A DNA stretch of 64,000 nt from Candidatus Anstonellaceae archaeon (GCA_038887295.1 JAWAKW010000001.1:366359-430358), one strand, 5' to 3'; positions 1 through 36,884 are shown, numbered from the stretch's first letter. Translations and numbers: made by a program. The notes: generated by a model from the sequence alone, not told the origin.

Positions 1-784
1 ACATCGGCAATACTATATAGGCTGACAAAGCAATAGCAATAAGCAATCCCCCCAACTTTCTTGTAAAGTACGGTATTCTTAGAATCAGCCCAATCGATAT
101 CATTACTGGGAAGAAAGCATACCATAAGTAATCCAGCACTATCTGCTGAGCTCTTGCCAGCATCATCAATTTGATGGAAATGTCAAATATTGAGGAAAAT
201 AAATCAGCAACCAAAGAAAGCCCTGCAAAAGGGGAGATATTCAGATTGCCTTGTCGCTCATCAAGAATTGAAGTGCTGCTGAAAGCCAAGTTGGAAAGGA
301 ACGCGTAGTTCCAATAATTTTTCAATGCAGTAAACGCAGTCATCCGTGCAGTTTCATAAAGAGTCTGCAAATAATCACTTGCAAGCTCTATATGGCAAGC
401 TCTTCTTCTGTCTATTGGGCAATTGGCTCCGCTTGGGCAGCAAACAGTATTGACATAGGTGTCCCAAGCACCGGTGGTGTCATCGCTTATGTGGCTTAAG
501 TTCATCAGCCACTCATCCACTACCGAAACTAGTCCCACTGTGAATATCAAAATTATCAAAGAAAATGCAGTCTGCCAAACCTCTTTTTTCACCCACACCC
601 TCAGCTTTTCATCACCAGTGGCCGCAGCTACAAAATACCCAATTGCAAGCAAAAGGATAACTGTAGCAACTGCAATCCCAACAAGCGATTCCCATCCCCA
701 TACCCACACGCTTCTGCTAGGTTGGGCATAAGTTAGGCTAACCAAAGCGATGCATACGAACATTGCCAACCTTTTCAAATTCAT
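1..784 (-). CDS. Polytopic membrane protein, paralog 1 of tandem family (runs off window start)
   Basis: Not in the ORF track; translated by hand from ATG 784: MNLKRLAMFVCIALVSLTYAQ...GYFVAAATGDEKLRVWVKKEVWQ...ASDYL...AQQIVLDY...GLILRIPYFTRKLGGLLIAIALSAYIVLPM. No stop before position 1. Shares motifs with the next two ORFs. Confidence 0.85.
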   Translation of the reverse strand, partial: MNLKRLAMFVCIALVSLTYAQPSRSVWVWGWESLVGIAVATVILLLAIGYFVAAATGDEKLRVWVKKEVWQTAFSLIILIFTVGLVSVVDEWLMNLSHISDDTTGAWDTYVNTVCCPSGANCPIDRRRACHIELASDYLQTLYETARMTAFTALKNYWNYAFLSNLAFSSTSILDERQGNLNISPFAGLSLVADLFSSIFDISIKLMMLARAQQIVLDYLWYAFFPVMISIGLILRIPYFTRKLGGLLIAIALSAYIVLPM

Positions 785-785
785 G

Positions 786-1706
786 TTATCCCAGCTTTTG
801 CCCTATGAATTTTGTGAAACTTTTGATAAAGGCTATGGTAATTGTGATTGAAAGGGCAGGCAAGAAAAGCGCCTGCAGCAGTAGATAGGAGAATGACAAA
901 AACGGATAGAAAAAAGTCTTTACATAGCTATATAGCCCGAACTCTGTCGTTTCTGTTGTGAAATTGGGGTATCTGCTGAGCATATAATCATCTATATTTG
1001 GAAGCGACGTGGTGGAAAAGGTGTTAGTCAACATGAAGTTGACTACATATCGGTGCATTACATAGGTGTAAGGGAATATTATGCCGAAGCCTATTGCAGT
1101 TGCAATAAGGAAAGCGCTTGCATCCCTCAACGGAGGAAATATTCTGGTTAGAACAGCTGCAGGCAGCAAAAATGGCAAAAGCATCCCTCTTATTGCCTCA
1201 AGGATAATCTGTTGTGTCAGAAGGCTTGCAATAAAAGGCATGGTTATTATGGAAAGGTAGCTGAATACCTTCTCTATCACTGGTGCAGAAGGGAAAGCAG
1301 GCAATATCGTACCCCATGCGCCGGGTCCCCACCTCATTGACCATGCTCCCCAATATTGGTATCTTAATTCTGCAGCCTTGAAAAATACAGCAACCTTTAG
1401 CCCTACATTCTGACTAATATCATTCAAATAATCCCTTCCAATCTCATAGGGGTCAGCACCAGCAAACATTTCTGCCATCTCGGCTGCAAAACAGGTTGCC
1501 CCAAACAAGCCGATAAACAATATCGCAGATACAAACAACTGGTAAATTTCAATTGAAGTGAATGCCTCATATTCTGGCTTGCGGAAAAGCGAGGCACTCA
1601 TATAAGAAATTACAAGGACTGAAATCATGGTTGCAAGCGCAAGGCCCGCTGTAGCAAAAATCACGTTGTACAAAAATGCAGGATCTGCACACAATGGCAT
1701 CCTCAC
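786..1706 (-). CDS. Polytopic membrane protein, paralog 2
   Basis: 306 aa with several hydrophobic helices; motif LTRIFPPLRDASAFLIA...IIFP; start overlaps the stop of the upstream paralog. Confidence 0.85.
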   Translation of the reverse strand: MRMPLCADPAFLYNVIFATAGLALATMISVLVISYMSASLFRKPEYEAFTSIEIYQLFVSAILFIGLFGATCFAAEMAEMFAGADPYEIGRDYLNDISQNVGLKVAVFFKAAELRYQYWGAWSMRWGPGAWGTILPAFPSAPVIEKVFSYLSIITMPFIASLLTQQIILEAIRGMLLPFLLPAAVLTRIFPPLRDASAFLIATAIGFGIIFPYTYVMHRYVVNFMLTNTFSTTSLPNIDDYMLSRYPNFTTETTEFGLYSYVKTFFYPFLSFSYLLLQALFLPALSITITIAFIKSFTKFIGQKLG

Positions 1707-3091
1707 ACCAGTTTGCTTATTCCAAAAATCTTTGTTTCACCGCCTATGAGCAAAGCAAAATCTTTCAGAAGAGTCAATGTTATCACAATCTCATTGACCA
1801 AAAACAAAATGGCTATCATAGCAAAGTGCATCGTATCTTCTACAACGACTTCTACTAATTTTATCATCGCAACGGTTGCTTCCTTTGGATGGGGAAATAG
1901 GAATGCATCCCAGTCCCTTAATATAATTGCCCCTCTTCTCTTTAGCTCTTGCCATGCCTCATCCGCTCTTCTTTCAGTTTTGGTCCACTGCTCAGAGCTT
2001 GCACTTCCGCGGGCGTATATTTCAAGAAAAGTCGTTTCCTGCCTTTTTGCGTGCTGCTCAAGTATCCTATTCACCTCATCTGGGCTTTTGCCGTAACAAA
2101 TAGAAAAAATAGAGGAATATTGCGAAAAGTCTGTCAGCGGAGAGGCGCAGACCTTTGTTCCTGAAGAGTCGTATCTGCAATTGAATGAGCAGCAATCAGC
2201 ATCTGTATTACATGTTTGGTCATTGGTTAGGCACTGCGGACCACTTGGCTGAGGTTGCGGGTTTGCAATCATCTCCCATATTTGCTGGTTTATCAGTATG
2301 CTGATTGGATAGATGAAGTAGCCGGCAAAAACCACTGCAATTATAGTTGAGCCAGTTTTGCGGGTAAGTGGGAAAGCTCTCAGCATCAGCCCAAAAGGCA
2401 AAAAGACACTCAAAGCCGTCTCTTCAATAAAAATGAGCAGGATTTTTTGTGCCATCACGCTTGCTATAATTGCACCCAATATGTCCACAAGAAGGGTGTG
2501 AGCATCATTAAGGGGGACAGTCCCTATCCATGGGGCAACAGATATATCCAACTTAATGAATGGATAAAATATAGGCAAAGAAAATCCGGTAACAAGACCG
2601 GAAAGTATACCTATAAACATCTCGCTTAGCATCAGTGAGTTGTACCCCAAAGTAAGTTTGTTGAGCATTACCCCCTCTGCCACCACCGGATAAGGGAAAA
2701 TCATTAACTTTGGGCGGCAGCCAAGGAAATAGTCCGCCTGAGCATACGCCAAATTCCCATTTTCCCATTTCCCGTTTCTAAATGGGCCGTGCTTTGCAGC
2801 CCACTCAGGGCAGACTCTGTCAGGCGGAACGCCCTGCAAATTAAACCCCTCTGCAACAAAATCAAATATCCCGCCTGGAGTTGCAAGCAGAAAGGCAAGC
2901 AGAAGCACTATTGCACTTACAACCAGCTCTGAGGCTTCTGCCTTCGCGAAGGCTTTGAGGGCAGCATTTGAAAAAAACTCCCCTGCCATAAAAGAAAGGA
3001 CAATTATCCCAATTGCCACTGCGAAGGCAAAAAAGATATACTCGTAAAATGGGGACTGCTGGATTATCACTGCAAGCAAATACTCAAGCAT
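1703..3091 (-). CDS. Polytopic membrane protein, paralog 3, with a Cys-rich knottin-like loop
   Basis: 462 aa; motif LMLRAFPLTRKTGSTIIA...FIYP; C-x6-C-x5-CC-x3-C-x9-C insert. Confidence 0.85.
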   Translation of the reverse strand: MLEYLLAVIIQQSPFYEYIFFAFAVAIGIIVLSFMAGEFFSNAALKAFAKAEASELVVSAIVLLLAFLLATPGGIFDFVAEGFNLQGVPPDRVCPEWAAKHGPFRNGKWENGNLAYAQADYFLGCRPKLMIFPYPVVAEGVMLNKLTLGYNSLMLSEMFIGILSGLVTGFSLPIFYPFIKLDISVAPWIGTVPLNDAHTLLVDILGAIIASVMAQKILLIFIEETALSVFLPFGLMLRAFPLTRKTGSTIIAVVFAGYFIYPISILINQQIWEMIANPQPQPSGPQCLTNDQTCNTDADCCSFNCRYDSSGTKVCASPLTDFSQYSSIFSICYGKSPDEVNRILEQHAKRQETTFLEIYARGSASSEQWTKTERRADEAWQELKRRGAIILRDWDAFLFPHPKEATVAMIKLVEVVVEDTMHFAMIAILFLVNEIVITLTLLKDFALLIGGETKIFGISKLV

Positions 3092-3194
3092 ACCTTTTCC
3101 CTTAGTTTTTGTTGGGCATTGATTACTTAAACTATTTGGTTGGTTCTCAGAAAGGCACAGATTTATATACGCTGAGAATCAAAAGTGATCATTG

Positions 3195-6100
3195 ATGAAC
3201 TTCAGTGGCATTTTCCACAGCAAAGCCCCACTAATTTTGCTAGCTTTGCTTCTCTCTCCCTCCCTTTTATTCTCCTTTGAAACATTAAGCGAGGGCAAAT
3301 TCAAGACTATCATCGATTTGGAATTAGATAACAAAACCGTGATTGCAAAGATTACCTATGTCAATCTCAGCTATTACACCAAGCCGCTGCCACAAAACTA
3401 TCCGAATTTGGACAGAAGACTTACTACCTTGCCACAAGAGTTTTTCAAGCAACCATCAAGGCCTTATTCTGAGGACTACTTTAGTTTTGAAAAGAAAAAC
3501 CTTTCCAATGCCTCGCTTTTTTTCACAGTAATTGCAGGAGCAAGTGAATTCAGAGTGGCTAATGAGAACGGGCAAGAAATCTGTTTTCCTGCAAATAAGA
3601 CTGATGAGGCTGGAAGAACAAATTGCACAGTTTCGCATTTTCTGAATGCATCCGGACAGCCCCAGCCGATCGATTCTTTGCCAAATTGCGCATTAGTCAA
3701 AGTGGTCTTCAACGGAATGTTCAAGGATGGGGTGGAATACAAAGCCAGCACGCAGACGATCATGGTTTGCCCTGCCTTCAGCCCTGCTCTTTCAAAATTA
3801 GGGCTTGCCACTGCGTTGGTGCTTTCCTCAAATTCAAATTCCTGGATTTGCTTCCCATTAATCCTGATCCTTTCTCTTCTTATAGCAGGAATGTATTATT
3901 CTGGAAGGAATCCGCTTTCCCTTTTTGATTTAACTACTCCTAAGCTGCCGCAGGGAAAGCATGCCAAGATGAAATCCAAAGCATCCCCGCAAATGATTCG
4001 CTCTATTGCACGAAAATATGCGCAAATCCAGCTCAGGGCAGCAGCGCACGCAGCCAAACTGGCTGCTGTGGCTGCCAAAGCAAAAGGCAAAGACATGGGG
4101 CTAGAAAAAAAAGAAATCGGACGCAGAGCAAGAGAGGCAAGAAAGCGGACCGAAGAGCTCTTTCGCGACATCAAGCACACGTTGGGTCACACTAAAACTG
4201 GGCTCTCAGATGCTCAAATAGCAGAATTCCAAAGGAGGCTCGCAGCAATATTTGGAGATGCACCCCAAGGAAGAAGAGCATTTGCAATCTGGAAAAAAAG
4301 CATTGAGGCAGCACTGCCTTTTGTGCAGCTTTACAATGCAGCCTATCAAGCATACAGCCTCACTGCAGAAGGCCGAGGCACTTCCAACTCATTCATCTCA
4401 CGAAAAGTAGTCACCCCCCTATTTAATACTCTCACCAAAAAAAGTGTATGGCTGGAGGAGCTTAAGGGGGTGAGGGCATCTGGGAAGATTCCGCTTATCA
4501 AAGCCCCTTTGAATACTCTGACAAAGGCTTTTGATGTGACTGCTCAGCACCGCTCCTCGCGCGTATCTGCCGTAAATCTAAGAAGAGAAATACTTGGCGG
4601 AATCTTTTATACTATTTTAAACAGGTTGAACATGCTGGATAAGGTAGGCTCAGCAATAAGAGGCTCGCCTATAGAAAAATTCTTCAAATTCACCCACAAC
4701 TGGACATTTCAGAATTTTGTTGAAAAACACGACTTATACACCAAAAAATTCCGTGAGCTTTACGACCCGGTAGAAAATATCCGCAATCTCACGATTATAT
4801 CGTCCAAGATTTTATATGACAATGCCATCATAGCATTGAGTCTTTGGCTTCCAACAAAGGCAACAATGAGTGAAATTTTGAATTCCTTAAAAGTAGAAAC
4901 AGAGAAGAGGAGTTTGCATGAGCAAAGGCTTATATTGGAAGGACTTTTGAAAGACCTCCAAGAAGGAAGGTATATCTCACGTACTAAATTAAAGAGTGTC
5001 TTAGATAGGATAGATATTTCACCGTCAGATCGCAACTTTATCTTAACCGCCATCAGTCTGCAAAGAAAGTGGAGTGAAATAGAGAGGCGAATCTTAGAAA
5101 TCATGAACGCTCAATTTGCCACTTATGCAGATAGGGTAATGGCATTATACTCATTGATGAAAGAGTACAATCTTGACAAGATAAAAGGGCGCGAGCCACT
5201 TAATCTAACTGACACTCTTCAAAAATGGAAAGAACATGAAGAAAGATTGATTAGAGGAATTATGCTTGCCAGGCTTGAAGGAGGAGTTTACAAGCCCATC
5301 ACATGGAACGATATACGCAACGACATGAGGAATAATGTTTCTGAAGATGAGATTAGAAGAAAATATTCAGGCATTCTCAACCAAAATGAATACAAGAATA
5401 GAATTAACGCTTTGCGCAACTATATATTGCTTGCCCAAAATGAAGATGATTTAAGAAGAAGAACTGTCAACTGGATTTTGGAGATTCGTGATGAGTTAAA
5501 CCGCAAACTTGGCAGTGCAGACAGAACAGACACATTATCCCTTCTTCGCTCCAACTTTGTTGGCACAAACCCAACTGCAGAATTCCTTAACAGAAGATTA
5601 AGAGAACTCGGAGTTAATGTTTCTGTAAGGAACTTGGACGAGTTTGAAATCTTCTTCTTCAGAGGTACAATGGCAGAGCAGATGCGCGCCAACCTTGAGC
5701 AGGCAGCGAGGGCCAGAGGACTAAACATGTCTGTAGACGAGATTTTAAGAAGGCTTTTGTCTGACACTCTCCACTTCCAGATGGCCTACAATGTTGCAAT
5801 CGTGAGGATAAATGACTTGATTTCTGGCAAACCTGAAGACAGAAGAAGAGTGTTTTCGGATGCATTTGGGATTGATGCAGAAAGGCGCGTTGCCCAGATG
5901 ATTAAAGCCCATGAGCAATTGGAATATGCATTTCAAAGGAAAGTTTTCAATTATACAAACTATGATTTGAGCACTGAGAAGCTTTTCAACTTGGTTCGAG
6001 CCTCTGACCGGGCAACCGCGTTTTTCGTTTGGGGTTCGCAAAGAGGCGGAACCAATGCAGAAATTGGCATGGGGCTCTTGAATTCAGCCCTAAGACAAAA

Positions 6101-8765
6101 CGCAGAGGCAATCGGGATATTGCGCGCCTTCTACAATAATTTAACTAATCCTTCAAGCAAATTCTATGATGCGCGTTTTGCCGCCAACGTAAGAGGAAAT
6201 TTTGTTTCTGACTACCAAGCACTTCTTGATAGAGGATATAACTTCACTGACTTACGTAATGGTGTGGGCCTCCTTTTGAGTGGAGACAAGAGGGGTAATT
6301 TGCCCTTTGTGGAATACGACCGCAACATCCTTTCCAAGCTTGGCTACTCAAGTGAAATTGTCCGGAAAGGGGAAGTCCGCGACCTCGCTCCTCTCTTGGC
6401 CAGATTGTCTGAATCATTTTACATAAACCTTCCTACCGGCGTTGTGATTCTGACAAAACATGTCGATTCGGCAGGAAGAACTAGCTGGCTTTACGGCTCT
6501 CCGCTAAAGGACAAGACAGTTGCAGCACTTTACAATCAAGCAATCCAGGATCCCACCTATACGAGAACTTCAGAATTATCAAAGGCTCTCGCAGGATTCG
6601 ACAGAGATGGGAATTATAATCCTCTTTTGCAGTCTATAAAAGTTATTGCTGCGAAAGATTTGCAGGAGATGAAAAACAATCCGAACAATTTTTTCGGTCA
6701 TATCTCTTGGACAGAAGGAGTCAAAAACAGGATAAGAACAGGCCTTCACAAGCTTGGTGAGCTGTTTGGAGAAATGTATTATGCAGGCACAAATTGGCGT
6801 GCAACCAAGCTTGAAGGGTGGTATGCTGCCCAATATCAAATGCGCATGATCTTGGACTCCTACGAGCGCTCAATTAATACTTACATGACCTCTGGCAAAG
6901 GGCGCTTTGATCCCTCAAACTATATAAGGAATATGGAAGAGGAGGCAAAAAATTCCCAGGATCCTGTCAGACTCCTGATTGCACAAACAATGTATAAGCT
7001 AGACAGAGGAAATGGAACAAAGCTTGAAACGCTTCGTGCCACCTGGGAAGGCTTCAAGCGCAATATTGCCTCAAAAATTGTTACAGAGGTTGCAGAAGCA
7101 GAATCTGCATTCTATTCTGCCAAGCTGGAGATGCGTGCGATTGAAAAGTTAAGAAAAGAAGGGGCAATCACAGACACCGAATACCGCAGCCTCCGCTCTG
7201 AAGCACTGTCCAAAATACAACATTTCAAGTCAGAATGGAAAGAACTGAAGCATGAGTACAAAGACTATAATCAGTCTGCAAGATACTGGGCAAGCAGCCA
7301 TGACAATGTTTATGGAACAAGCAGGAACATATTCACAGCATTTAGCCCTCTTGCAGCCATTTTTGACAGCAAGTTCGTCCAAGGTGCAAAATATGACTTC
7401 TACTGGATTACAGAATCCAGCGCAATGAGGGACCCGCGCACAGCCACTGGCGCAGGCTTTGGCCTTGACTATTCATTTTATGTAGGTTATCAAACCGGTC
7501 AGACAGTCTATGAACGCTCCAGATTCTACATGACCAATGCACTGTGGGAAGAACAAAACCGCATCCCACTTATTTTTTCATACGCAGTCCATAAGTGGTT
7601 CTATGCGCCAGTAAGCCAAGCATTCCGTGACAGAAGTCACTACCCGTCATATCTTGAGATGGATGCCATTTATCCAGGAAGGATGCATGATGACAGCAGG
7701 CGTGGTAAACATGATCTGCTTTTCCCCACCCTCCTTGCTCCCTTGCGAAAGCACTACAGCTCAGATTTCTGGCGGACAAGGTTTCAGGCTCTGCTTGACT
7801 ATTCTGGAGCTTCCTCATTTATAGGTGCATATCTTGACACAACACCAAAGGATTCATTCACCCGCACAATGGCAGAAAAGCTGTTTACCCCAAGCCCGCA
7901 CTATTCTACTGAAGCTCGGTTTATTCTTTCGCAGCGGACGCTTGACCAGTTCAGGAAGCTTGATGAGGCAATTGAAAAATTCAGCGAGGTAAGAGAAGCA
8001 TGGCATCAATATATTACGTCACCTGACGGCTCAGATGAGCAGCGAAAGGCATTAGATGTGATTTCAAAATATGTAGAAATACGTGACAGAAGGCCTTGGG
8101 GAGTTCAGCGTGCTGTTTCGGGTTCAGATATGGATGAGGACGGCTCCAGAAACCGTTTCATGAACCTTTATATCGGCTTTCACCAAAACATTTGGAAGCC
8201 AGTGGTGCCAGGAATGATGGATTTAGATCCGATAACTGGAAAATGGCGTGCCTTCCCCCAGGTTGCCGCAGTAGTTGACCGCGCAAAAGAAGAAACTAAA
8301 TTGGACAACTTGCGCCACTTCAATATCGCGCGCTTTGATGAAAGCACTGGTAGGTTGGTTTGGGAAGACCAGCTGCATACTCATGATGATGCCTCAAGGG
8401 AAGTATACAAGCGTGAAAGTACCACCCTCATTCACTTAATAAAATACCAAAACGAGATGCTGACTTATAGCTTGACAAACACTCCCTCCACCATCTTCAT
8501 GTCGCCTACCATTCGTTTAGGCCAAGTTATCTTAGGCCACACCATTTTATCTACAACTTACATTCCTCAAACGATCTTTACTGAAATGGTATTGTCACCA
8601 GTACGAAAGCTGCAGCGTACCGGCCTGATATTGAAGAATAACATACAAGACTTAGTTGACAGCGTCTCCTTCTGGAGAGAAACCAGCTATGAAAAACTTT
8701 CAGAAGAGGCATTGAGGGAAGGTCTGGAAACATATCGTGTATTGAGGGGAAGACGATCAATATGA
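3195..8765 (+). CDS. Giant membrane-anchored protein of unknown function (~1856 aa)
   Basis: N-terminal signal peptide, ~170-aa Cys-containing domain, hydrophobic segment at about aa 200-236, then a ~1600-aa charged, probably helical region. Confidence 0.85.
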   Translation: MNFSGIFHSKAPLILLALLLSPSLLFSFETLSEGKFKTIIDLELDNKTVIAKITYVNLSYYTKPLPQNYPNLDRRLTTLPQEFFKQPSRPYSEDYFSFEKKNLSNASLFFTVIAGASEFRVANENGQEICFPANKTDEAGRTNCTVSHFLNASGQPQPIDSLPNCALVKVVFNGMFKDGVEYKASTQTIMVCPAFSPALSKLGLATALVLSSNSNSWICFPLILILSLLIAGMYYSGRNPLSLFDLTTPKLPQGKHAKMKSKASPQMIRSIARKYAQIQLRAAAHAAKLAAVAAKAKGKDMGLEKKEIGRRAREARKRTEELFRDIKHTLGHTKTGLSDAQIAEFQRRLAAIFGDAPQGRRAFAIWKKSIEAALPFVQLYNAAYQAYSLTAEGRGTSNSFISRKVVTPLFNTLTKKSVWLEELKGVRASGKIPLIKAPLNTLTKAFDVTAQHRSSRVSAVNLRREILGGIFYTILNRLNMLDKVGSAIRGSPIEKFFKFTHNWTFQNFVEKHDLYTKKFRELYDPVENIRNLTIISSKILYDNAIIALSLWLPTKATMSEILNSLKVETEKRSLHEQRLILEGLLKDLQEGRYISRTKLKSVLDRIDISPSDRNFILTAISLQRKWSEIERRILEIMNAQFATYADRVMALYSLMKEYNLDKIKGREPLNLTDTLQKWKEHEERLIRGIMLARLEGGVYKPITWNDIRNDMRNNVSEDEIRRKYSGILNQNEYKNRINALRNYILLAQNEDDLRRRTVNWILEIRDELNRKLGSADRTDTLSLLRSNFVGTNPTAEFLNRRLRELGVNVSVRNLDEFEIFFFRGTMAEQMRANLEQAARARGLNMSVDEILRRLLSDTLHFQMAYNVAIVRINDLISGKPEDRRRVFSDAFGIDAERRVAQMIKAHEQLEYAFQRKVFNYTNYDLSTEKLFNLVRASDRATAFFVWGSQRGGTNAEIGMGLLNSALRQNAEAIGILRAFYNNLTNPSSKFYDARFAANVRGNFVSDYQALLDRGYNFTDLRNGVGLLLSGDKRGNLPFVEYDRNILSKLGYSSEIVRKGEVRDLAPLLARLSESFYINLPTGVVILTKHVDSAGRTSWLYGSPLKDKTVAALYNQAIQDPTYTRTSELSKALAGFDRDGNYNPLLQSIKVIAAKDLQEMKNNPNNFFGHISWTEGVKNRIRTGLHKLGELFGEMYYAGTNWRATKLEGWYAAQYQMRMILDSYERSINTYMTSGKGRFDPSNYIRNMEEEAKNSQDPVRLLIAQTMYKLDRGNGTKLETLRATWEGFKRNIASKIVTEVAEAESAFYSAKLEMRAIEKLRKEGAITDTEYRSLRSEALSKIQHFKSEWKELKHEYKDYNQSARYWASSHDNVYGTSRNIFTAFSPLAAIFDSKFVQGAKYDFYWITESSAMRDPRTATGAGFGLDYSFYVGYQTGQTVYERSRFYMTNALWEEQNRIPLIFSYAVHKWFYAPVSQAFRDRSHYPSYLEMDAIYPGRMHDDSRRGKHDLLFPTLLAPLRKHYSSDFWRTRFQALLDYSGASSFIGAYLDTTPKDSFTRTMAEKLFTPSPHYSTEARFILSQRTLDQFRKLDEAIEKFSEVREAWHQYITSPDGSDEQRKALDVISKYVEIRDRRPWGVQRAVSGSDMDEDGSRNRFMNLYIGFHQNIWKPVVPGMMDLDPITGKWRAFPQVAAVVDRAKEETKLDNLRHFNIARFDESTGRLVWEDQLHTHDDASREVYKRESTTLIHLIKYQNEMLTYSLTNTPSTIFMSPTIRLGQVILGHTILSTTYIPQTIFTEMVLSPVRKLQRTGLILKNNIQDLVDSVSFWRETSYEKLSEEALREGLETYRVLRGRRSI

Positions 8766-10999
8766 GGCAGATTTTTTTCATTGCAGCTTTTTTCTTGCTT
8801 TTTGGATGCACCTTCAATATTCCGCCAGAGCAAAAATTTGTCTCTGCAGATTTGACTCTTGCAAGATTTTCGCCGCAAAATGAGATGGCGTGCCAGCCGC
8901 TTGATGACCCAAAGCCTTGCTATTGCATGGTATGTCAAAACACCACAAGCTGGCTCGGCCTTTTTGATAAAGTGAAATTCTTGTCTTCATGGTTTGATTC
9001 CAATCTTTACGAGGGCAAATGCGAATTTAGGCATTGCAATCTTTCTGATATGGTAAATTTCATCGAACAGGACAAAAACACACAGCTTCGCTCCTTTATG
9101 CTGGGCGGAGGACCCACTCATTCTGCGGTGGATTTGGCGAATACTTATTGCAACTACTCCCTTCAGTTTTCAACCAAATGGCTAATAGGCACACAAACAG
9201 TATCTCCTCCAATTCCAAAGAAGACACAGGCAAAATGCTGGCTGGAGCGCAATATCTTGCCTTTCTATATTTATTTTACAGAAGGAAAAAACATTGACCC
9301 TGTGAGAACAGGGGAGATTGCAAAGGCTTTGAATGGCACAGGCCCTGTGTTTTTGACCACTGAAGCCTGGCTTGATCCAAGAGACCCCTTCTCAGTACAA
9401 AAAGTCAAGGAACAAATTGACCAAATAAAAGCAAACTGCAACAAATGCCTTGTCGTATTGATGCTTAATGGGACTACAGCCGATCGCAAAGCACTCCTCA
9501 AAGAATTTTTTGGTACAGGGGATATAAAGACAGGGGCGGGCTTTAGCCAATATTATAAAAAAGTAGACGTTGTTGGGTTCGGAATACTTGCAAATGATTA
9601 TCCAACTTGTAATCCAGTAGATGTAATCGGGGAGAATTTCCTTTTTTCTCGCTTCGTCCTCAAGAATTATTCCAAGCCAACTATCTGGCTTTATGTCGGC
9701 GTTAGCAAAGGCAACAACAGCTTCAACAGTTGTACGTGGACAGACTCCCAAATCCATCTTTTCTACCAGCAGCTTTTTGCAAGCACACAGGCAATGGCAA
9801 GTTCAGGTGTGATTGGGATTGGCTTCTATGAGTTTTCAGATCACTCCGGCCCTATTCCCTGCGACAATAGGACAAAAGGCTGCGAGTTTGGCTTTTTGGA
9901 CGTTTTTGGCAACCAAAAGCACCCTGTGCTAAACAGCTGGTCTTCCCTCTGCCAATATTTTGGCACAGAGCAGTTCAGAAGCCTGCTTATTTTCTCAAGA
10001 AATGGATACGGCTCTGTATGCGACCCGGGGCAGCTTCAAAACAACAAGATGTTCCGTGCAATTTCTCTTGAAATAAACAGCCCCAAGCAGCCCTCATACT
10101 CTTTCGTGGCGCCTGCTCCAAAGCAAAAATACATCCGGTGCGGAGACATCTGCGTTTCTGATGTTCCCCTAAAGGATTGGACGATTTTTGATAACACCAA
10201 CAAGCAATTTGATTCCTCACATTGTGACATTTATTCATTTATAGAGGAAGAAGCAGATAAAAAGGAAATCAGCGCACTCTTTTTCAGGGCAATTATAGAG
10301 CAAGAAAGCAATTTTGACAAATTCGCTGTTTCATGCATCTCCAAAGACTCACCAAACTGCAACACGGCCAACCTCACTGTTGCTGAGATTTGCAGGCTTG
10401 CAGGCATGCCAGACGATTGTGGCCGGGTTCCTGGCACGTATTGGAACGATGCCCAGATCCATTCAGAATGCCCACCACACATGAAGCCATGTGCCTTCGG
10501 GCTTGCACAATGCATTGCTTATCCTGGTGCTTATTATGTCCAAAATAATCTTGCAATGCCGCCAGAGATTAGAAATTGCGGGAAAAGCAAGTCAGGAAAA
10601 GACTACAATCCATTTGACCCTTATGATAGCGTCTGCTGCGGTACCTCACTTTTCAAGTATATGCTCGATTTCCATCCTTCTACTGGCTGGTCTTTTGTGA
10701 ATAGACACTGGAATTCGCTGACAGAATGCACTGGCGGGGTAAAAGATGATAAGGGCTGGCTTGCTTATCTTCTTGCTGCAGAAACTTACTATGGTCATCT
10801 GCCGCCAAGTATCTCTTCGTTTCTTTCACAAAGAGACCAAAATGGCAAATGTCAAGGAATTCAGCATTATGTAGATTACATGCGCTCTGTAGGGCACGTA
10901 TATTCTATGGATGTAATGTCGCGCTACCTTGATGCAATAGAAAAATGTGGGGCAGAATGCCCTGGCAAAGAGATGCAAATCATTGCCCAGCAGCCGTAA
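8762..10999 (+). CDS. Cys-rich lipoprotein with putative glycoside-hydrolase-like N-terminal region and C-terminal lytic transglycosylase (SLT)-like domain
   Basis: Lipobox LLLFGC; RAIIEQESNFDKFAVS (catalytic E-S motif), AFGLAQ (GLMQ-like), NPFDPYDSVCCGT; ATGA overlap with the giant protein gene. Confidence 0.7.
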   Translation: MRQIFFIAAFFLLFGCTFNIPPEQKFVSADLTLARFSPQNEMACQPLDDPKPCYCMVCQNTTSWLGLFDKVKFLSSWFDSNLYEGKCEFRHCNLSDMVNFIEQDKNTQLRSFMLGGGPTHSAVDLANTYCNYSLQFSTKWLIGTQTVSPPIPKKTQAKCWLERNILPFYIYFTEGKNIDPVRTGEIAKALNGTGPVFLTTEAWLDPRDPFSVQKVKEQIDQIKANCNKCLVVLMLNGTTADRKALLKEFFGTGDIKTGAGFSQYYKKVDVVGFGILANDYPTCNPVDVIGENFLFSRFVLKNYSKPTIWLYVGVSKGNNSFNSCTWTDSQIHLFYQQLFASTQAMASSGVIGIGFYEFSDHSGPIPCDNRTKGCEFGFLDVFGNQKHPVLNSWSSLCQYFGTEQFRSLLIFSRNGYGSVCDPGQLQNNKMFRAISLEINSPKQPSYSFVAPAPKQKYIRCGDICVSDVPLKDWTIFDNTNKQFDSSHCDIYSFIEEEADKKEISALFFRAIIEQESNFDKFAVSCISKDSPNCNTANLTVAEICRLAGMPDDCGRVPGTYWNDAQIHSECPPHMKPCAFGLAQCIAYPGAYYVQNNLAMPPEIRNCGKSKSGKDYNPFDPYDSVCCGTSLFKYMLDFHPSTGWSFVNRHWNSLTECTGGVKDDKGWLAYLLAAETYYGHLPPSISSFLSQRDQNGKCQGIQHYVDYMRSVGHVYSMDVMSRYLDAIEKCGAECPGKEMQIIAQQP

Positions 11000-21310: not shown

Positions 21311-21364
21311 CACTTTAGGTGGCAATTTTAAGATTTGGCGAGAATATATAATAAGGGGAAAAGG

Positions 21365-23725
21365 ATGCGGCATTTCGACTTTAAAAAAAGCCACCACAGG
21401 CTCAAAGAGGACCAGCTTTTGAATTTCAAAAGCTCGCTTACGCACGAATGCACCAGCACGCGCAGGATGAGGCTGGTTGTCTTTCGGCATTTTCTTGAAA
21501 ATGTGGTGCTCAAACATGCAGCCGAGTTCAGGCCAGGGGCATACAAAGTAATCTTTAAGCCAGAGGAGAAGGAAGGCTCGCCTTACTTGTGCATTTATCC
21601 ACAAATGCGCTTTTCTGATTTGAATGCCTTCAAGATTATAAAAAGCCAAAAAAAAGACATAGTTTTCATTTCATACAGGTGCAAAGAGCCTTTCTCCTTG
21701 GTGGATACACTGCAAAGGGAAATTGGAGCTCAGCCACTTGCCAACTTTTTAATCAGGCATATAGACTTCGAAACTTTGGCTTCAGCCATAGCCAAAAAGA
21801 AGGCTCAGCTTGCCTTGCATACGCCACAAAACGATCAACTTATCGCAGACCTTCAAATCCTCCAAGATTACATTAGTAATGAAACCTCCCAAAGAGAATT
21901 GCTGCTTAGACAATCCTGCCTTCCTGGAAAAACAACCCAGGAGCTTTACCGAGCTCTTTCAGAGATAAAATTAGTGATTTTGCAGATGAAGGAAGTCAAA
22001 AGGCAAACCAATTCGTGTGAGCGGCTTCCTGACATTATGCCGTTTTCTGCCGCAATGTTTTGGCCAATTTCGCAGCATGAGGCAAAAATTATTGTGGATT
22101 GCGCAAGCCCTGCCTTCAAAGCCTTCGTCGCTGCAGGAATGCAACAATATGTAACTGCAATGAAAAAGTCTTCAGGCGTTGCACTCTTGGAGTATTCCTC
22201 ATTTGATTTGATGCGCGACTTTGACTATCTGCTACAGCGGATGCAGGACCAATACCCAAGAAAAGAATCATTCCAGCGCAAATATGAGGACATTATGCGT
22301 CGCATGCGCGAAGTCTACAACAAGATTAGGGTTATAGACAAAAAAATGCTCACCCTTTCTTCCAAGCTTTCATATTCTCCTTATGATTTTTTGGCCGTAT
22401 GCGAACTTGGGCAAATGAGGAGAGATTTGCTTTTGCTGCTGAGGAAAATTTACAAGGATGTCGAGTTCCTAAGCCACAAAACCGAAGAAGTCAACCATTT
22501 AAGGATGATAATTTCAACCATGGCTGCAAATTTGTGCAAGATTGTTAGCGATGAGTACAGGCTGTGGGAAACCTTCCTTTCCTCAGGCTATCTGTTTGAG
22601 CCATCTTTTCAGAAGAATCTGGCAAAGCTTAAAGCAAAGGAAAAGCCAGATATCCAAAAGCTATATTACCGAATAAGCTCTTTCATCCGATATGCAGAGT
22701 TGGAGGATGAAAATATACAAAAAATGAGGCAGGACGCTTCCTCCAGCCCGCAAAAATACTTCAGCAAAAGCAACAACCTTGAAAAGGATCTTGCATCCAA
22801 GATAGATTCGCTCAGGGACATTTCTCCTCTGGCGCACTTTGTCCTTTCCGAAGCCTATATTGATTCAAGATCCCATCTGGAGTATAAATTCGGCGGCAAC
22901 ATGTGCGAAGACCCATTTTATTACCTAAATTCGACCGATTTACTTCTTGCAAAGCTGATGATTGCCCCCAATGAAGAAAAACAGGCTGCAGCAGAGCAGC
23001 TCAGAAAACAAGTTGCAGCAAATGCATCTGTTTTTGGAATTCTGGAAAAATACGGTCTGAAATCCCAGATTCTTAACAGCATAGAGCCTTTCCTTTACCT
23101 CAAAGAAAAGGCATTTGACTTGGAATTCAACCCATTTTCCAAGCTTGAGGAAGGATTCCGCGGCAAAAGCATAGAGGTCTCTTACAGAACTGCAGTGGAA
23201 TCAGACGGAAAGATGTATATCTATTACCAATTAGGACAAATTGTAGAAAAAGTACCCATTCCTACCCCTTCTGAAATTTCTGCCTCAGAAAAGATAGGGC
23301 CGGAAGCAGTTTATGGCGACAAGTTTGATTTAGATTTTGTCCTGCAGAATCAAGTTACAGGCAAGCCACTTTCTGAAATTTACACTATAATTTACAGCTC
23401 TCTGCCTTCTGACTTCTCAACTTTTCTTACTGTGCAACAAAGCCTCCGTTTTGAGGACCTTTCCACCTCATACTTCCTTTCAACCTTCCCAAAAAGCCAT
23501 TTTGGAGGTTGCATCTCAAATATAGGGGAGGTTCCGCCATCATTTTTGGACAAAAACACCAATACCCTCATTGACGGCCTTAAGGCTATCTATCCAAACT
23601 ACCAAAATGAGGTTAAACAACTAGTGGATTTCTTTCTGGATAAGATGAGGTTGAGGATATTTAGGGAGCTGAACCGCTCCACTCTCTTTTGGATTTCAAG
23701 CTGCATCGATGAAATGAAAACATAG
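21365..23725 (+). CDS. Hypothetical protein (~786 aa, helical-looking, no motif recognised)
   Basis: Long uninterrupted ORF; start uncertain (TTG 21335 or ATG 21365). Confidence 0.7.
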   Translation: MRHFDFKKSHHRLKEDQLLNFKSSLTHECTSTRRMRLVVFRHFLENVVLKHAAEFRPGAYKVIFKPEEKEGSPYLCIYPQMRFSDLNAFKIIKSQKKDIVFISYRCKEPFSLVDTLQREIGAQPLANFLIRHIDFETLASAIAKKKAQLALHTPQNDQLIADLQILQDYISNETSQRELLLRQSCLPGKTTQELYRALSEIKLVILQMKEVKRQTNSCERLPDIMPFSAAMFWPISQHEAKIIVDCASPAFKAFVAAGMQQYVTAMKKSSGVALLEYSSFDLMRDFDYLLQRMQDQYPRKESFQRKYEDIMRRMREVYNKIRVIDKKMLTLSSKLSYSPYDFLAVCELGQMRRDLLLLLRKIYKDVEFLSHKTEEVNHLRMIISTMAANLCKIVSDEYRLWETFLSSGYLFEPSFQKNLAKLKAKEKPDIQKLYYRISSFIRYAELEDENIQKMRQDASSSPQKYFSKSNNLEKDLASKIDSLRDISPLAHFVLSEAYIDSRSHLEYKFGGNMCEDPFYYLNSTDLLLAKLMIAPNEEKQAAAEQLRKQVAANASVFGILEKYGLKSQILNSIEPFLYLKEKAFDLEFNPFSKLEEGFRGKSIEVSYRTAVESDGKMYIYYQLGQIVEKVPIPTPSEISASEKIGPEAVYGDKFDLDFVLQNQVTGKPLSEIYTIIYSSLPSDFSTFLTVQQSLRFEDLSTSYFLSTFPKSHFGGCISNIGEVPPSFLDKNTNTLIDGLKAIYPNYQNEVKQLVDFFLDKMRLRIFRELNRSTLFWISSCIDEMKT

Positions 23726-23861: not shown

Positions 23862-25102
23862 ATGCGTTTTAATTTGATTTTCATTCTTCTGTTTGCAGCT
23901 CTAACCCCCTCTTGTTTTTCGGAAGGATACATGCTCAAAGTAGATAAAGCTTTGATTTCGAAGCACTTGAAGACCCCTTAAGCCCACAGTCTATTCTTTC
24001 AGGAAGCGGCTTGTTCTCCCAAACAAACTCCTTTGGCTGGCTTTTCAAAGAAAACAGTCATAGTTTACCCACAACATTCTGAAAAACGCCCGGAAAAATA
24101 TTCTGCTGAACATGAAATCGTTTTTAGCAGAGTAGAGACTGGTCACTATCCTAAAGCTGGATTAGCACTCAGCACAGATCAGAAAGGAGCATTATTCATC
24201 GAGTTTGAAAGCCGCGCAGGCGAAGTATACCCTCGCGTGCTCAAAAATGACGGTCTTCTCACTTCTGAGTCACAATGGCTCAAAAGATATTATTTCATAC
24301 CTGAAAATTTTGAAAATGGGGCAAGCATTTGGCTTTTGATAGGATGGATAGAGAATATGAGTATAGACGATGTTGTGAGGCACATTAAAGAAGAAGGAAA
24401 ATTCACTGTTGAGTGGGAAGACTATCAAAACCGCTACGAATATACTGCCTATTCCATATTTTCAAACAAACTTACTGGAGAGCTTAAGATGGTTTCTAAT
24501 TATGATACTCGCGGGAGTACAAGAATTATGCGATAAGGGAAGAGGGGCCTAATCTGCTATTCTTCCTGACAGATGACTACGATTACATAAAGAATCTTGA
24601 TTATGTGGATACTTATAGAATATATGTGGAAGGACTTCCTAACATACCTACCAACATAGATTCAATATCAGAAAAACTGAGCGCATACATCGAAGGCACT
24701 CTTAAACTTCCAAAGCCGCAGTTCATCATCTTCTCCTGGTCACATCTTGTAGGAGAAGATCCACATGATTATCATAAGGCACTGATTGAAGTGTGGGCTA
24801 TTAAGATGAAAAATCACTCAGTTTACACTGTTGCCATGGGTTTAGCCTACTCAGACAGTTATATTTTTTCTAGAAGATTGAAAGAGTTCGTTGGCACATT
24901 TACCCTCCAATCAGCAAAATATACCGATCCGCACGCCTTGGAAGCTACGCAAATATTTGAAGGTGAAGCATTTGGTTATCTGGATGAGAATCTTTCTCCA
25001 ACAGGTCCTGGATTACTAGGCTATTTTTCCGAAGAACCATCGCTTTTAAAGGAGGCAACTGGGCCTTCCTGCCGTGCTTTGAGATTTTCAGTGTTAAGAT
25101 GA
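23862..25102 (+). pseudogene. Disrupted gene for a secreted protein (premature stop plus frameshift)
   Basis: GGTGA SD and ATG 23862 give signal peptide MRFNLIFILLFAALTPSCFS; in-frame TAA at 23979; the same frame continues as ORF 24033-24536; the frame of ORF 24605-25102 is open from 24506 and overlaps it. Confidence 0.7.
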
Positions 25103-25210
25103 ATCTTGCACCCTTCAAGACAACCCACAAGCTAAAACACATTGTTTTTAAATTCATATGAAACTAATTAATAATCGTCTTTTTTGAAATGGAAAAGGTG
25201 GAGAGGTGAA

Positions 25211-25900
25211 ATGATGGAAATTAAAGATCTGTTCTCAGCCAAAGGGCTTGCATTCCTTGCGCTCTTTACGCTCCTTTCAGTAGTTGCATCTTCAATAAAC
25301 TTTTCTCAAGTCTTGGGTGGCCCATCCAATCAGACCTTCACCTTCTTCCAGTTCATAGGGCCGATCGCTGGCGGATTCCTTGGCGCCGGAGTGGGAGTCC
25401 TTTCAGTGATTCTTACCCAGCTGACTTCGTTTATCCTTTTGGGCAAATCGCTCGAAGTAATAAACGTGCTTAGATTTTTGCCTATGGCATTTGCAGCATT
25501 CTATTTTGCAAAATACTCAAAAGGAAAGCTTGTGCAAGGCATAGTCCCGCTTTTGTGCATGGCGGCTTTTATGGCGCATCCTGTCGGCTTGCAAGCATGG
25601 GTTTACTCGCTTTATTGGATGATTCCTGCAATAGTGCTTTTGCTTCCTGAAAACCTTTTTGCCCGCTCTCTTGGCGCAACCTTTACTGCCCACTCCATCG
25701 GAAGCATAATTTGGCTTTACTCTTTCCCATCCACACCTCAATTTTGGATTGGATTAATCCCTGTTGTGGCGTTCGAGCGGCTGCTTTTTGCAAGTGGCAT
25801 TGCGGCATCCTTTGTAGCGTTCAGCACTGCGCTTGCCAGAGTGGATGCAATTGCAAAGTCAGGCTTAATCCACATTGACCGCCGCTATGTGATTGCATAA
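25211..25900 (+). CDS. Integral membrane protein, possibly an ECF transporter S-component
   Basis: About 6-7 TM helices; FQFIGPIAGGFLGAGVG resembles the S-component N-terminus; GAGGTGA SD. Confidence 0.55.
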   Translation: MMEIKDLFSAKGLAFLALFTLLSVVASSINFSQVLGGPSNQTFTFFQFIGPIAGGFLGAGVGVLSVILTQLTSFILLGKSLEVINVLRFLPMAFAAFYFAKYSKGKLVQGIVPLLCMAAFMAHPVGLQAWVYSLYWMIPAIVLLLPENLFARSLGATFTAHSIGSIIWLYSFPSTPQFWIGLIPVVAFERLLFASGIAASFVAFSTALARVDAIAKSGLIHIDRRYVIA

Positions 25901-33407: not shown

Positions 33408-36400
33408 TTACGAGCAGCCCGTGGTCTCTCCACAGTCAATGCATACCTGGCAGCTCCCGTTCTGCTTCACCTTCATAGAGCCGCAGCTTGGACACTGCAG
33501 CCCGGTAAAACCTTGGGCTTTTGCATTCCTTGCCTTCTCCTCAAAATCTTCATCTTCCTTCTCCTCACGGGCTGGCTGCATCTCTGCAAGCTTGGTTTGG
33601 GCTTTTTGCTCCTCTACTCTTGGAGTAGGCTCATGCGCACTCTCCCCATTTATTGTTTTGACATGGACAAAATCTCGCCTGTTGAGATACTCATAGCCAA
33701 GCACTCGGAACACGTAATCTATTATCGAGGTAGCATTCTTTATTGCCTCATGGCCAGTTACCACCCCAGAAGGCTCAAACCTCGTGAATGTGAAGGTGTC
33801 CACAAATTCCTCCAGCGGAACCCCGTACTGTAAGCCCTTACTGACGGCAATTGCAAAGCAGTTCAACAGCGCACGATAGCCTGCACCCTCTTTGTACATG
33901 TCAATGAATATCTCACCAAGAGTCCCATCCGGGTACTCGCCGGTCTTAAGGTATACTTTGTGGCCACCCACTCTTGCCTCCTGAACAAAGCCCCTTCTTT
34001 TCGGCGGGAGTTTCCTTCTGTTTATCCTCCCTAAAATCTTTGACTGAAGCTGCGCAGGTCCAAAAGTCTCATCTATGTCTTCGCTTATCCCAAGAAGCTG
34101 CGCAAGCTCGTCTTCATCCACATCAGCAGTGGCATTAAGCGGCTGAGACAGCTTGCTTCCATCCCGATAAAGTGCGATGCTTTTGAGCATGTATTTCCAA
34201 GAGGCAAAGTATGCCTGCTTTATATCTTCTATGGTGCTTTCTGCAGGCATATTGATAGTCTTGGAAATTGAGCCGCTGATAAATGGCTGTGCAGCTGCCA
34301 TCATCCTTATGTGCCCAAGGTAGGAGATGAAGCGCTTGCCTTTTTTGCCGCACCTGTTGGCGCAGTCAAACACAGGATAGTGCTCCTGTGCCAAGTGAGG
34401 TGCGCCCTCGAGCGTCATGGTGCCGCACACATACTCATTTGCCTCTTCTATTTGCTGCTTTGTGAAGCCAAGCTTTGAAAGCAAATCAAATTTGGGGTCG
34501 TTTATCTCAGCGCTGCTAAACCCAAGCGACTGCAGGAAGTCTTCGCCCAAAACGTGCTTGTTGAATACAAACCGTATGTCAAATATCCTCGGAAGCTCTG
34601 CTTCAATCCGAGCAATTTTTTCTTGCGTAAACCCTTTCGCAGCCAAAGTCTGCGGGTTGATATGCGGGCAGCCAGCCAAGGTTGCCCTGCCAAGCGCATA
34701 TTGCTCTATTTCCTTTATTTGCTGCGCAGTGTAGCCAAGCTTTGCCAGCGCCTTTTTGACCGAGTTGTTTACTATCTTAAAGTACCCGCCGCCTGCCAGT
34801 TTTTTGAATTTGACAATTGCAAAATCCGGCTCTATTCCAGTGGTGTCACAATCCATCTGCAGCCCTATGGTTCCAGTAGGAGCAATTACTGTAACCTGGG
34901 CATTTCTGTAACCGTATTTTTCACCCATCTGGTATGCCCTGTCCCAGCATTCTCGCGCAGCTTCCAGCAGGTATTTGGGGCAAAATTGCGGGTTAATTCC
35001 CATCGGCTTTACGGTAAGACCCTCGTATTCGTTTTCAGGAGCGTTGTAAGCGGCCCTTCTGTGGTTGCGGATTACCCTCAGCATGTGCTGGCGGTTCCTT
35101 TCAAATGCCTTAAACGGCCCAAGCTCGCGCGCCATCTCCGCAGAGGTTGCATAAGCTTCGCCGCACATTATTGCAGTTATTGCCCCACATATTGCAAGCC
35201 CCTGCGGGCTTTCATATGGGATCCCCATAACCATAAGAAGCGTCCCAAGGTTTGCATACCCCAGCCCAAGGGTGCGGAACTCAAAGCTTTTTCTTGCAAT
35301 TTCTTTTGACGGGAATTGTGCCATCAAAACAGAAATCTCAAGCACCACAGTCCAAAGCCGCACGGCGTGCCTGAATGCCTCTACATCAAACATTCCGCTT
35401 TTTTCATCATAGAATTTGACAAGGTTAAGCGAGGCAAGGTTGCAGGCAGTATCATCCAAGAACATGTATTCCGAGCAAGGGTTGGAGGCGTTTATTCTGC
35501 CGTCTGCTGGGCAGGTGTGCCACTCATTGATGGTGTCGTCAAACTGAAGGCCTGGGTCTGCGCAGCTCCAGGCAGCATATGCTATTTGGTCCCAAAGCTG
35601 CCTTGCCTTCACTTTTTTCATGACGCTTCCGTCTGTCCGCGCTATTAGGTGCCAATCAGCGTCATTTTCAACTGCCCAGATGAATTTGTTTGAAATGCGC
35701 ACAGAATTGTTGCTGTTTTGGCCAGAAACAGTAGTGTAAGCTTCAGATTCGTAGTGCGTATCAAAGATCGGAAAATCAATTTTGTATTTGCCTTGCTTTG
35801 CAAGCGCAAGCGCCCTGAAAATGTAATTTATCGGAACATTGCGCGAAAGTGCCTTGACCACTGCAAGCTTTACCCTCTCATTTTTCAAGTCAGTGGTTTG
35901 CTCGTCTTTTGCGACTTTGAGTATCTCGTTTAGGTATTTTGCGCAAGCCTTGCTTCCAGCAACCATTGCAGCAACTTTTTGTTCCTCTATCACTTTCCAG
36001 TTTATGAACTTTTCAACATCAGGGTGGTCAATATTCACAATCACCATTTTGGCTGCCCTTCTGGTGGTTCCGCCTGATTTTATTGCCCCTGCAGCCCTGT
36101 CATATATTTTCAAAAATGACATCAAGCCCGAGGAATACCCCCCACCCGAAAGCTTTTCACCCTCTGCCCTCAGGCAGGAAAAGTTGGTGCCTGTGCCTGA
36201 GCCATACTTGAACAGCCTTGCTTCGCGGACTACCAAATCAAATATCCCGCCTTCATTTACCAAGTCATCTTTGACTGATTGGATAAAGCAAGCATGCGGC
36301 TGCGGTCTGGTGTATGCATCCTCAGAAGGCCTGATTTCCCCGGTTTGCGGGTCTGCATAATAATGTCCCTGAGGGCTTCCTCTTATCCCGTATGCAAAAG

Positions 36401-36884
36401 CAAGCCCTGTGTTGAACCACTGAGGCGAATTTGGGGAAGCCATCTGATGCACAAGCATATACTTTAGCTCGTCCTCAAATGCTTCAGCATCTTCTTTGCT
36501 TGCAAAATATCCATACTTTTCCCCCCAATGCCTCCAGCAGCCAGCAAGCCTTCTTATCACTTGTTTGATGCTTCTTTCCGGCCCAAGCATTATTTTTCCG
36601 TCAGGCCCAATTATCGGCTTGCCGAATTTGTCATACTGCGGCACGCCAGCCTTGCGGAAATACTTTTGAGCCACAATATCAGTTGCAACCTGCGACCAGC
36701 TTTTTGGCACCTCCACATCCTTCATTTCAAAGACAATGGAGCCGTCTGCATTTTTTATGGTGGAGGTTCTCAATTCGTACTCAACAGTATCAAGAGGGTC
36801 TATTCCTTCAGTTGTAAAAAGCCTCCTTATTTTCAGCCCACCCTGCCGGCTTTCTTGCGGCAAAAGCGCTTCGGTTTTTTCCAT
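33408..36884 (-). CDS. nrdJ: Class II (B12-dependent) ribonucleotide reductase
   Basis: [34 protein letters not shown]-terminal CPSC/CIDC and TGCS. Confidence 0.95.

Follow-up and report, generated by a model that had tools for sequence, protein, structure and literature searches.

The 64,000-nucleotide stretch of DNA analyzed here (the window; G000:C1:366359-430358) comes from a Candidatus Anstonellaceae archaeon whose genome assembly comprises 0.87 Mb in 30 contigs, with an estimated completeness of 97.6%. At the left end of the window, two runs of open reading frames (ORFs) point away from each other, and the original prediction, made from the sequence alone, saw in them a candidate contact or secretion machine. 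To the left of a 100-bp gap (3092-3191) that presumably serves as a divergent promoter region, the minus strand encodes three related membrane proteins, which we call M1 (1703-3091, 462 amino acids), M2 (786-1706, 306 amino acids) and M3 (2-784, the N-terminal 261 of 431 amino acids). To the right, the plus strand encodes a giant single-pass protein of 1857 amino acids (3192-8765, with a TTG at 3192 and an ATG at 3195) and a Cys-rich lipoprotein of 745 amino acids (8762-10999). The two runs are as tightly coupled as had been predicted: the M1 and M2 genes overlap by 4 bp, those of M2 and M3 lie 1 bp apart, and the genes for the giant protein and the lipoprotein overlap by 4 bp. Within the gap, the sequence TTTATATA at 3162-3169, approximately 25 bp upstream of the start of the giant gene, fits an archaeal TATA box, which would give the giant gene a short leader or none.

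The claim that at least three paralogous polytopic membrane proteins lie on the left held for the paralogy and fell short on the count, since the window cuts the third gene of a run of six. The full M3 gene (G000:C1:365847-367142) ends 511 bp left of the window, and the minus-strand run on the contig continues through M4, M5 and M6 to genes for SecF and SecD (identified with Pfam). More paralogs were thus found left of position 1, as the original prediction had suggested; the ATPase and pilins that it hoped to see there are encoded elsewhere in the genome. SecF and SecD are encoded directly downstream of M6, just left of the window (L003 1210-4071). We considered this adjacency as a functional clue and dropped it, as it is confined to this genome and its four closest relatives (L027-L030) and is not kept in more distant genomes.

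Six ordered paralogs, probable distant relatives of CedA and CedE

M1 through M6 have 462, 306, 431, 443, 356 and 329 amino acids, respectively. In pairwise BLASTP searches of a 10-protein database, all six are connected, with E values from 1e-10 to 3e-2, and all have the loop motif LRxFPxTRxxGG in common, as well as a C-terminal tail that is conserved. A family hidden Markov model (HMM) recognizes M1, M2 and M3 with E values of 7e-83, 5e-74 and 1e-90. M2, the shortest paralog, has no Cys-rich outer insert; in M1, this insert is located after the conserved loop and helix.

An AlphaFold (AF2) model of M4 built from 38 orthologs (predicted local distance difference test score, pLDDT, 77) places transmembrane helices near residues 44-67, 84-106, 180-211, 223-241 and 396-422, in agreement with hydropathy. 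Helices 73-142 and 164-216 reach far past the membrane, and the Cys-rich inserts lie in the outward parts. By both hydropathy and model, the paralogs are polytopic inner-membrane proteins that span the membrane about five times and have a large loop outside the cytoplasm. They are predicted to start outside the cell, cross the membrane with five helices, project a long helical hairpin outward and end inside, such that the conserved Arg-rich loop and the tail would face the cytoplasm. This prediction agrees with the topology of VirB6, in which the N terminus is outside, five helices cross the membrane, a large loop extends outward and the C terminus is inside.

We followed the family through 121 Micrarchaeota genomes, one of them unpublished (G028), using a profile built from 48 members. 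Matches occur in 111 of these genomes, at 1 to 16 per genome, and the ten that have none are spread over five families. Among 1.84 billion proteins, the profile matches 3573 cluster representatives at E ≤ 1e-3. In addition, we inspected 20 loci that contain a homolog of the giant protein. In ten of these, the six-gene set, or hexad, lies beside the giant and lipoprotein genes, always in the order M1 to M6; nine are divergent, as in the window, and one (L044) is co-directional. M3 orthologs occupy position 3 in all ten adjacent hexads. HMMs specific for each position recovered the same order for all 12 genes of two distant operons, both from the family f9. M1-M6 are a fixed, ordered set that is older than the divergence of the families sampled.

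The genome carries a second complete hexad (C1:155180-164938), whose members have 426, 307, 1103, 607, 443 and 368 amino acids. The position-specific HMMs assign these to positions 1-6 in order, five of them clearly and the sixth as a tie. Several members of the second locus contain knottin-like Cys-rich domains, either N-terminal or inserted. A 13th, solitary member of the family (C1:100340-101338, L048; 332 amino acids, family HMM E 6e-20) fits none of the six positions clearly.

Four independent lines of evidence point to the VirB6/CedA superfamily: matches to a CedE model, structure, topology and a lead from the Atlas. CedE, a paralog of CedA, is described as a VirB6 structural homolog that has five transmembrane helices and superposes on VirB6 of R388 (PMC11868833). 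The five-helix topology predicted for the paralogs agrees with that description. The NCBIfam model of CedE (NF053657) matches 34 of the 121 Micrarchaeota genomes at E ≤ 0.1, and the 20 best matches all fall inside ORFs of the hexad family. Among 14 control genomes, Sulfolobus acidocaldarius alone matches. The best match has an E value of 1.5e-6 and covers model positions 22-200 of 260, scoring 27.4 bits against an equivalog cut-off of 400 bits. In our genome, the single match (E 5e-4) lies in M6', the sixth member of the second locus; when the 48 family members were scanned singly, one matched (E 2.5e-4). For the M4 model, no Foldseek match is significant; the best structural match is TrwI, the VirB6 protein of R388 (PDB 7o3v, 8rt9 and 8rtd), with a root-mean-square deviation (rmsd) above 7 A. 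The Atlas contributes a lead only, a Microcaldota cluster (0.88), 23% of whose members contain a CedA1 domain. Pfam and NCBIfam give no above-threshold match for the six paralogs, and among the 48 family members the CedE model is the only relevant match. A search of PDB sequences with a profile of M4 orthologs returned chance-level matches. From the combined evidence, the six paralogs are probably distant relatives of CedA and CedE, the archaeal VirB6-like channel proteins.

Pilins and ATPases in related operons and in this genome

In five genomes of the related family f9 (G102, G077, G006, G089 and G120), the hexad, pilin genes and an ATPase gene form a single co-directional operon. Its order is one or two pilins, M1 to M6, two paralogs of a membrane protein that we call memb269, the ATPase, a protein of 260-270 amino acids (p266), an anchored protein of about 800 amino acids and two giants. 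The first of the giants is Cys-rich and has 2200-3200 amino acids; the second, which ends the operon, is Cys-poor and carries the transmembrane and juxtamembrane motif of the giant protein in the window.

The pilin-like proteins, encoded directly upstream of M1 in f9, consist of a signal peptide and two hydrophobic helices. The Pfam model T4SS_pilin (PF18895) matches all 12 candidates at E ≤ 0.05, and TrbC/VirB2 (PF04956) matches seven of the 12 at E ≤ 0.002. One copy in our genome (C16:8247-8633) scores 29.3 bits with PF04956, above the cut-off of 27.9, and the family can be assigned to the VirB2/TrbC type. The genome has six pilin genes, of which four lie in tandem on contig C16 (7533-9155, L080) and the others at C1:118153-118479 and C7:18759-19061. 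The C1 copy is also a weak match to the HMM of the hexad family (E 0.0024), in line with the similarity that has been published for the N terminus of CedA and CedA1.

At C1:58573-60015 and C4:8323-9936, the genome encodes two ATPases with DUF87 and AAA_10 domains. Among NCBIfam models, VirB4-like CD1110 (E 5e-27), CedB (1e-26) and CedD (5e-22) match them best, all with scores far below the cut-offs; models of the repair protein HerA score worse (1e-8 to 5e-13). The alignments cover solely the C-terminal ATPase part of the VirB4-like, CedB and CedD models. Strong orthologs of the ATPase (E ≤ 1e-65) accompany the hexad family in every one of its 111 genomes and occur in none of the ten genomes that lack it, where matches are distant or missing altogether.

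The protein encoded just upstream of the ATPase, memb269 (269 amino acids), has two transmembrane helices and approximately 200 soluble residues. It may supply the VirB4 N-terminal part that the ATPase lacks, in which case the two proteins would form a split VirB3/VirB4. The Atlas places memb269 near a TraC-like cluster (0.81), which we treat as a lead only. A third P-loop protein (C4:28198-30180) matches the TrwB/VirD4 coupling-protein domain with 35 bits against a cut-off of 20.5.

No ATPase gene lies in or beside the M1-M3, giant and lipoprotein locus. The original prediction was also right that the window shows no VirB4/HerA ATPase; a weak AAA_10 match in the window was rejected as a motor for the machine, as it falls in the gene for the LonB protease (50258-52264). 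Likewise, the strongest DUF87 match in the genome (C1:262152) was not counted as a part. It lies beside a 765-amino-acid SMC/Rad50-like ORF, and from this gene context we read it as a member of a HerA-NurA-Rad50 repair cluster.

The giant protein and the lipoprotein

The 1857-amino-acid protein is anchored, as had been predicted. It begins with a signal-like N terminus, followed by an ectodomain of approximately 190 amino acids with four conserved Cys, and has one further hydrophobic, transmembrane segment at residues 217-235. Conservation is concentrated in the four ectodomain Cys, the transmembrane segment, a juxtamembrane motif (G238, P241, L244, D246, T248, P250, L252 and P253) and a patch near residues 1413-1436. 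The ectodomain is predicted to be small and Cys-bonded. There are no Cys in the 1618 residues past the membrane segment, and 18 orthologs have 0-12 Cys in this region. Because Cys are absent and because of the charge past the membrane segment, the sequence suggests that the tail of approximately 1600 amino acids is cytoplasmic.

Homologs of the giant protein are present in 48 of the 121 genomes. It has no sequence match in Pfam, NCBIfam or PDB. We considered whether it could be a hidden ATPase and dropped this idea, as the protein has no Walker A motif and a chance match to this motif occurs in one of 18 orthologs.

The lipoprotein contains 34 Cys, and its hydrophobic N terminus ends in a lipobox-like G-C (residues 15-16), which does not vary among the 18 orthologs. 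The lytic transglycosylase motif that had been read in its sequence was confirmed by Pfam: SLT (PF01464) matches residues 494-524 with 23.3 bits, above the gathering cut-off of 21.3, although the match covers only positions 3-33 of the 117-position model. It includes the catalytic Glu of the E-S motif (E515-S516), and 14 of 18 orthologs have a Glu at the aligned position. Pfam recognizes SLT in six of the 18 orthologs and no other family in any of them.

An AF2 model of the lipoprotein (pLDDT 80.5) adds a second glycosidase-like domain. In a Foldseek search of PDB, the model has 381 matches at E ≤ 1e-3, the best being the glycoside hydrolase (GH) family 10 enzyme 8b73_A (E 2.1e-6). Barrels of GH2, GH5, GH26, GH39, GH53 and GH113 also match, with a probability of 1.00 in all rows shown. 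In a library of viral structures, GH5-like phage proteins match, and the only SLT row stands at rank 41 (E 0.035). Both lists are dominated by the triose-phosphate isomerase (TIM) barrel. In the model, the alternating strands and helices of the N-terminal two-thirds form a (beta/alpha)8 barrel like that of clan GH-A, and the C-terminal third is an SLT-like region by sequence. Searches of PDB sequences with the lipoprotein and with its family profile gave no match.

Another protein with a putative murein-type activity is encoded in the window. The ORF at 55935-56867 (plus strand), directly after genes for GrpE and DnaK, encodes a protein of 310 amino acids with a strong lytic transglycosylase domain of the bacterial type (SLT_2, PF13406, E 1.6e-31). 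It is a second putative cutter of murein-type glycan in an archaeon that has no obvious wall of this kind, and it might be a bacterial acquisition.

The second locus has its own versions of both proteins. There (L047, G000:C1:146639-164938), the hexad is followed by a Cys-rich lipoprotein of 1356 amino acids and a giant of 1486 amino acids, all on one strand. The similarity of the two giants is limited to residues 143-261 of the window protein (E 6e-11).

A candidate secretion-derived machine, its rivals and its relatives

We consider it likely that the locus encodes, together with two accessory proteins of the envelope, the membrane-platform module of a machine that is chromosomal and vertically inherited, derives from type IV secretion and resembles Ced and Ted. 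The original prediction had staked its interpretation on similarity to VirB6 or CedA, on a linked ATPase and on co-occurrence of the genes in related genomes. The first is seen in the specificity of the CedE model for the hexad family in 34 of the 121 genomes, the second in the f9 operons with their VirB2-like pilins and VirB4/CedB/CedD-like ATPase, and the third in the parallel distribution of hexad and ATPase. Its secretion-machine interpretation is therefore supported; the second locus and the unlinked pilin and ATPase genes lay outside its view.

How might such a machine work? The six paralogs would assemble into one hetero-oligomeric platform or channel, with a pilin filament built on top and an ATPase ring docked beneath. 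As the ATPase would lack the VirB4 N-terminal domain, the adjacent memb269 probably provides it. The Cys-rich lipoprotein would play the role of VirB1, cutting a glycan layer at the site of contact. The giant protein could be anchored at the platform through its conserved transmembrane and juxtamembrane segment, with its scaffold of approximately 1600 amino acids in the cytoplasm. The most likely cargo of the machine would be nucleic acid or another kind of macromolecule, carried between the symbiont and a neighboring cell. Of the two directions, import, which Ced also carries out, is more attractive for an organism with so small a genome (0.87 Mb). A more specific version, which we offer tentatively and hold to be possible rather than probable, is that a hetero-hexameric VirB6-like ring matches a hexameric, split VirB3/VirB4-like motor and, together with VirB2-like pilins, forms a conduit that draws in macromolecules or nucleic acids of the host, while the GH-A/SLT lipoprotein opens the glycan layer of the host and the giant protein organizes the cytoplasmic side.

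Several observations weigh against a machine of this type. No match reaches a curated cut-off, be it for CedE (27 versus 400 bits), CedB, CedD or VirB4; Pfam TrbL/VirB6 (PF04610) matches neither the six paralogs nor any of the 48 family members at E ≤ 1; and Foldseek finds no significant match for the M4 model. (Genome-wide, PF04610 has weak matches in nine of the 121 genomes, none above the cut-off, and is uninformative, as four of 14 controls also match.) The VirB4 N-terminal region (PF03135) was not found in this genome, in which the pilin and ATPase genes are present and unlinked to the locus. The co-occurrence of ATPase and hexad may stem from few independent losses, and because the sampled genomes are related, such counts may reflect few independent events. 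Finally, the giant-lipoprotein pair lies away from the hexad in eight of the 20 loci, and the f9 operons yielded no member of the lipoprotein family.

The unreached cut-offs, the silence of TrbL and the lack of a significant Foldseek match could also be explained if the proteins form a lineage-specific envelope complex, such as an anchor, an insertase or a surface-remodeling system, that is unrelated to type IV secretion. In this case, the likeness to VirB6 and CedA would reflect convergent helical packing and hydrophobic composition, and the SecF and SecD genes directly downstream in this genus would fit such a role. We think this quite unlikely. Among the ORFs of 34 genomes, the CedE model matches only the hexad family and always through the same region of the model, and in five genomes a single operon encodes the hexad, pilins of the VirB2 type and an ATPase that resembles VirB4 and CedB. 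Moreover, presence and absence of the hexad coincide exactly with presence and absence of the ATPase across 121 genomes, and the SecDF adjacency is restricted to the four closest genomes.

A second possibility concerns the right-hand run alone. The giant protein and the glycosidase lipoprotein could form a surface module of their own, used for instance to digest glycans of the environment or the host, with only the left run belonging to the machine. The two genes are adjacent in 18 of the 20 loci, and the hexad lies beside them in only ten; the absence of the lipoprotein family from the f9 operons and the presence of another lytic transglycosylase in the window (the SLT_2 protein) also fit this idea. 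However, genes for a Cys-rich lipoprotein and a giant have independently joined a hexad on the same strand in the second locus, and L044 has M1-M6, the giant and the lipoprotein in one direction. The f9 operons finish with a Cys-rich giant and a giant bearing the same transmembrane and juxtamembrane motif. In addition, type IV secretion systems commonly contain a VirB1-type transglycosylase. On balance, a separate module is unlikely.

Genes resembling those of VirB2, VirB4 and VirB6, together with an SLT protein and a match to the TrwB/VirD4 domain, read like a parts list for conjugation, and one can also ask whether the genes belong to a self-transferring integrated conjugative element (ICE), or a plasmid remnant, instead of a domesticated machine. 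This is very improbable. The gene order of the hexad is constant across families of the class, the family is present in 111 of 121 genomes, and the parts are divided among four or more contigs in a genome of 0.87 Mb. The neighbors of the locus in the window are housekeeping genes, the GC content is even (0.42-0.49) without a shift at the flanks, and no integrase was found among the Pfam matches of the window proteins. Because of these housekeeping neighbors and the even composition, we conclude that the locus is not a mobile element.

Two other regions of the window deserve mention. A class II ribonucleotide reductase (33408-36884, minus strand, 1158 amino acids) has a barrel domain that Pfam matches in two separate stretches, which could be due to an insertion such as an intein. 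An ORF of 796 amino acids (21335-23725, plus strand) and the three that follow it (24033-25900, plus strand; 167, 165 and 238 amino acids) have no Pfam match at E ≤ 1e-6.

DPANN archaea have small genomes (under 1 Mb) and a limited set of biosynthetic pathways, and how they obtain material from the host is an open question. The domesticated, secretion-derived machine that we favor supplies named candidate parts: a platform of six paralogs with its pilins and motor, a lipoprotein that would cut glycans and a giant protein as scaffold. The machine would be phylum-wide, vertically inherited and derived from conjugation, and it is a plausible tool for exchanging material with other cells. We found no published description of such a system in Micrarchaeota or DPANN archaea in the full-text literature, a corpus that leaves most subscription journals outside, and supplements to the Ced, Ted and Patescibacteria papers may list DPANN homologs. 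The machine is apparently an undescribed relative of bacterial conjugation and of archaeal DNA-import machinery.

The closest comparison is with the Ced system of Sulfolobales (CedA/CedE, CedA1, CedA2 and CedB/CedD) and the Ted system of Thermoproteales (TedA, TedB and TedC), as described in two reports (PMC9905601, PMC11868833). Like the machine proposed here, these systems are chromosomal, archaeal and derived from type IV secretion. As is proposed here, they combine a VirB6-like polytopic protein (CedE, with five helices), a VirB2-like two-helix pilin and an ATPase of the HerA/VirB4 clade. According to the same sources, the ATPase genes can be unlinked from the channel gene, the channel protein has paralogs (CedA and CedE), and in Ced the N-terminal function of the ATPase is divided between proteins (CedB and CedD). 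There are also differences. The Micrarchaeota set has six ordered channel paralogs in place of one or two, and their sequence similarity to CedE is sub-threshold only. It belongs to a DPANN phylum, where almost all genomes examined have it and two complete sets are frequent. Ced imports DNA for repair; the function of the Micrarchaeota machine is a prediction. To our knowledge, neither Ced nor Ted has a counterpart of the giant single-pass proteins or of the Cys-rich GH-A/SLT lipoprotein. If our interpretation is correct, the domestication of type IV secretion for cellular use extends beyond Crenarchaea, and with it the Ced/Ted theme.

Among bacterial systems, the predicted topology of the paralogs agrees with that of VirB6/TrwI of R388. 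However, VirB6 of R388 is a homo-pentamer, whereas six distinct paralogs occur here; a fixed six-fold set is an unusual architecture for a VirB6-like protein. The silence of Pfam TrbL on the paralogs, the rmsd above 7 A and the absence of outer-membrane components further separate the two. Tandem expansion of VirB6 is known from the rvh system of Rickettsiales, which are, like the archaea considered here, obligately host-associated. The lipoprotein resembles VirB1-type transglycosylases in its above-cut-off match, its E-S motif and its being encoded beside type IV secretion-like genes. It differs from them in that just the first 31 positions of the SLT model are matched, the rest of the domain being interrupted by Cys-rich inserts. 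Its modeled (beta/alpha)8 barrel would place it with clan GH-A, although the fusion of two glycosidase-like domains in one lipoprotein with 34 Cys sets it apart from both families.

A further parallel is with the chromosomal type IV secretion system of Patescibacteria, the bacteria of the candidate phyla radiation (CPR). As described in passages of PMC12102498, this system derives from conjugation and has been retained as a chromosomal trait by ultra-small, host-dependent cells throughout most of a phylum. The system is of a monoderm type with VirB1-, VirB2-, VirB3-, VirB4- and VirB6-like parts, and the same paper cites VirB6 and a VirB3-like gene as essential for epibiotic growth in one strain. 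In contrast to the Micrarchaeota machine, it is bacterial and has a recognizable, full-length VirB4, and those passages report no six-fold paralog set. If the reading of the M1-M6 locus as part of a type IV secretion-derived machine is correct, the machine would parallel the Patescibacteria system. In the more specific, tentative version, with a hetero-hexameric ring and a conduit into the host, Micrarchaeota would possess an archaeal counterpart of that system, one that could provide a molecular basis for the symbiotic lifestyle of DPANN archaea.

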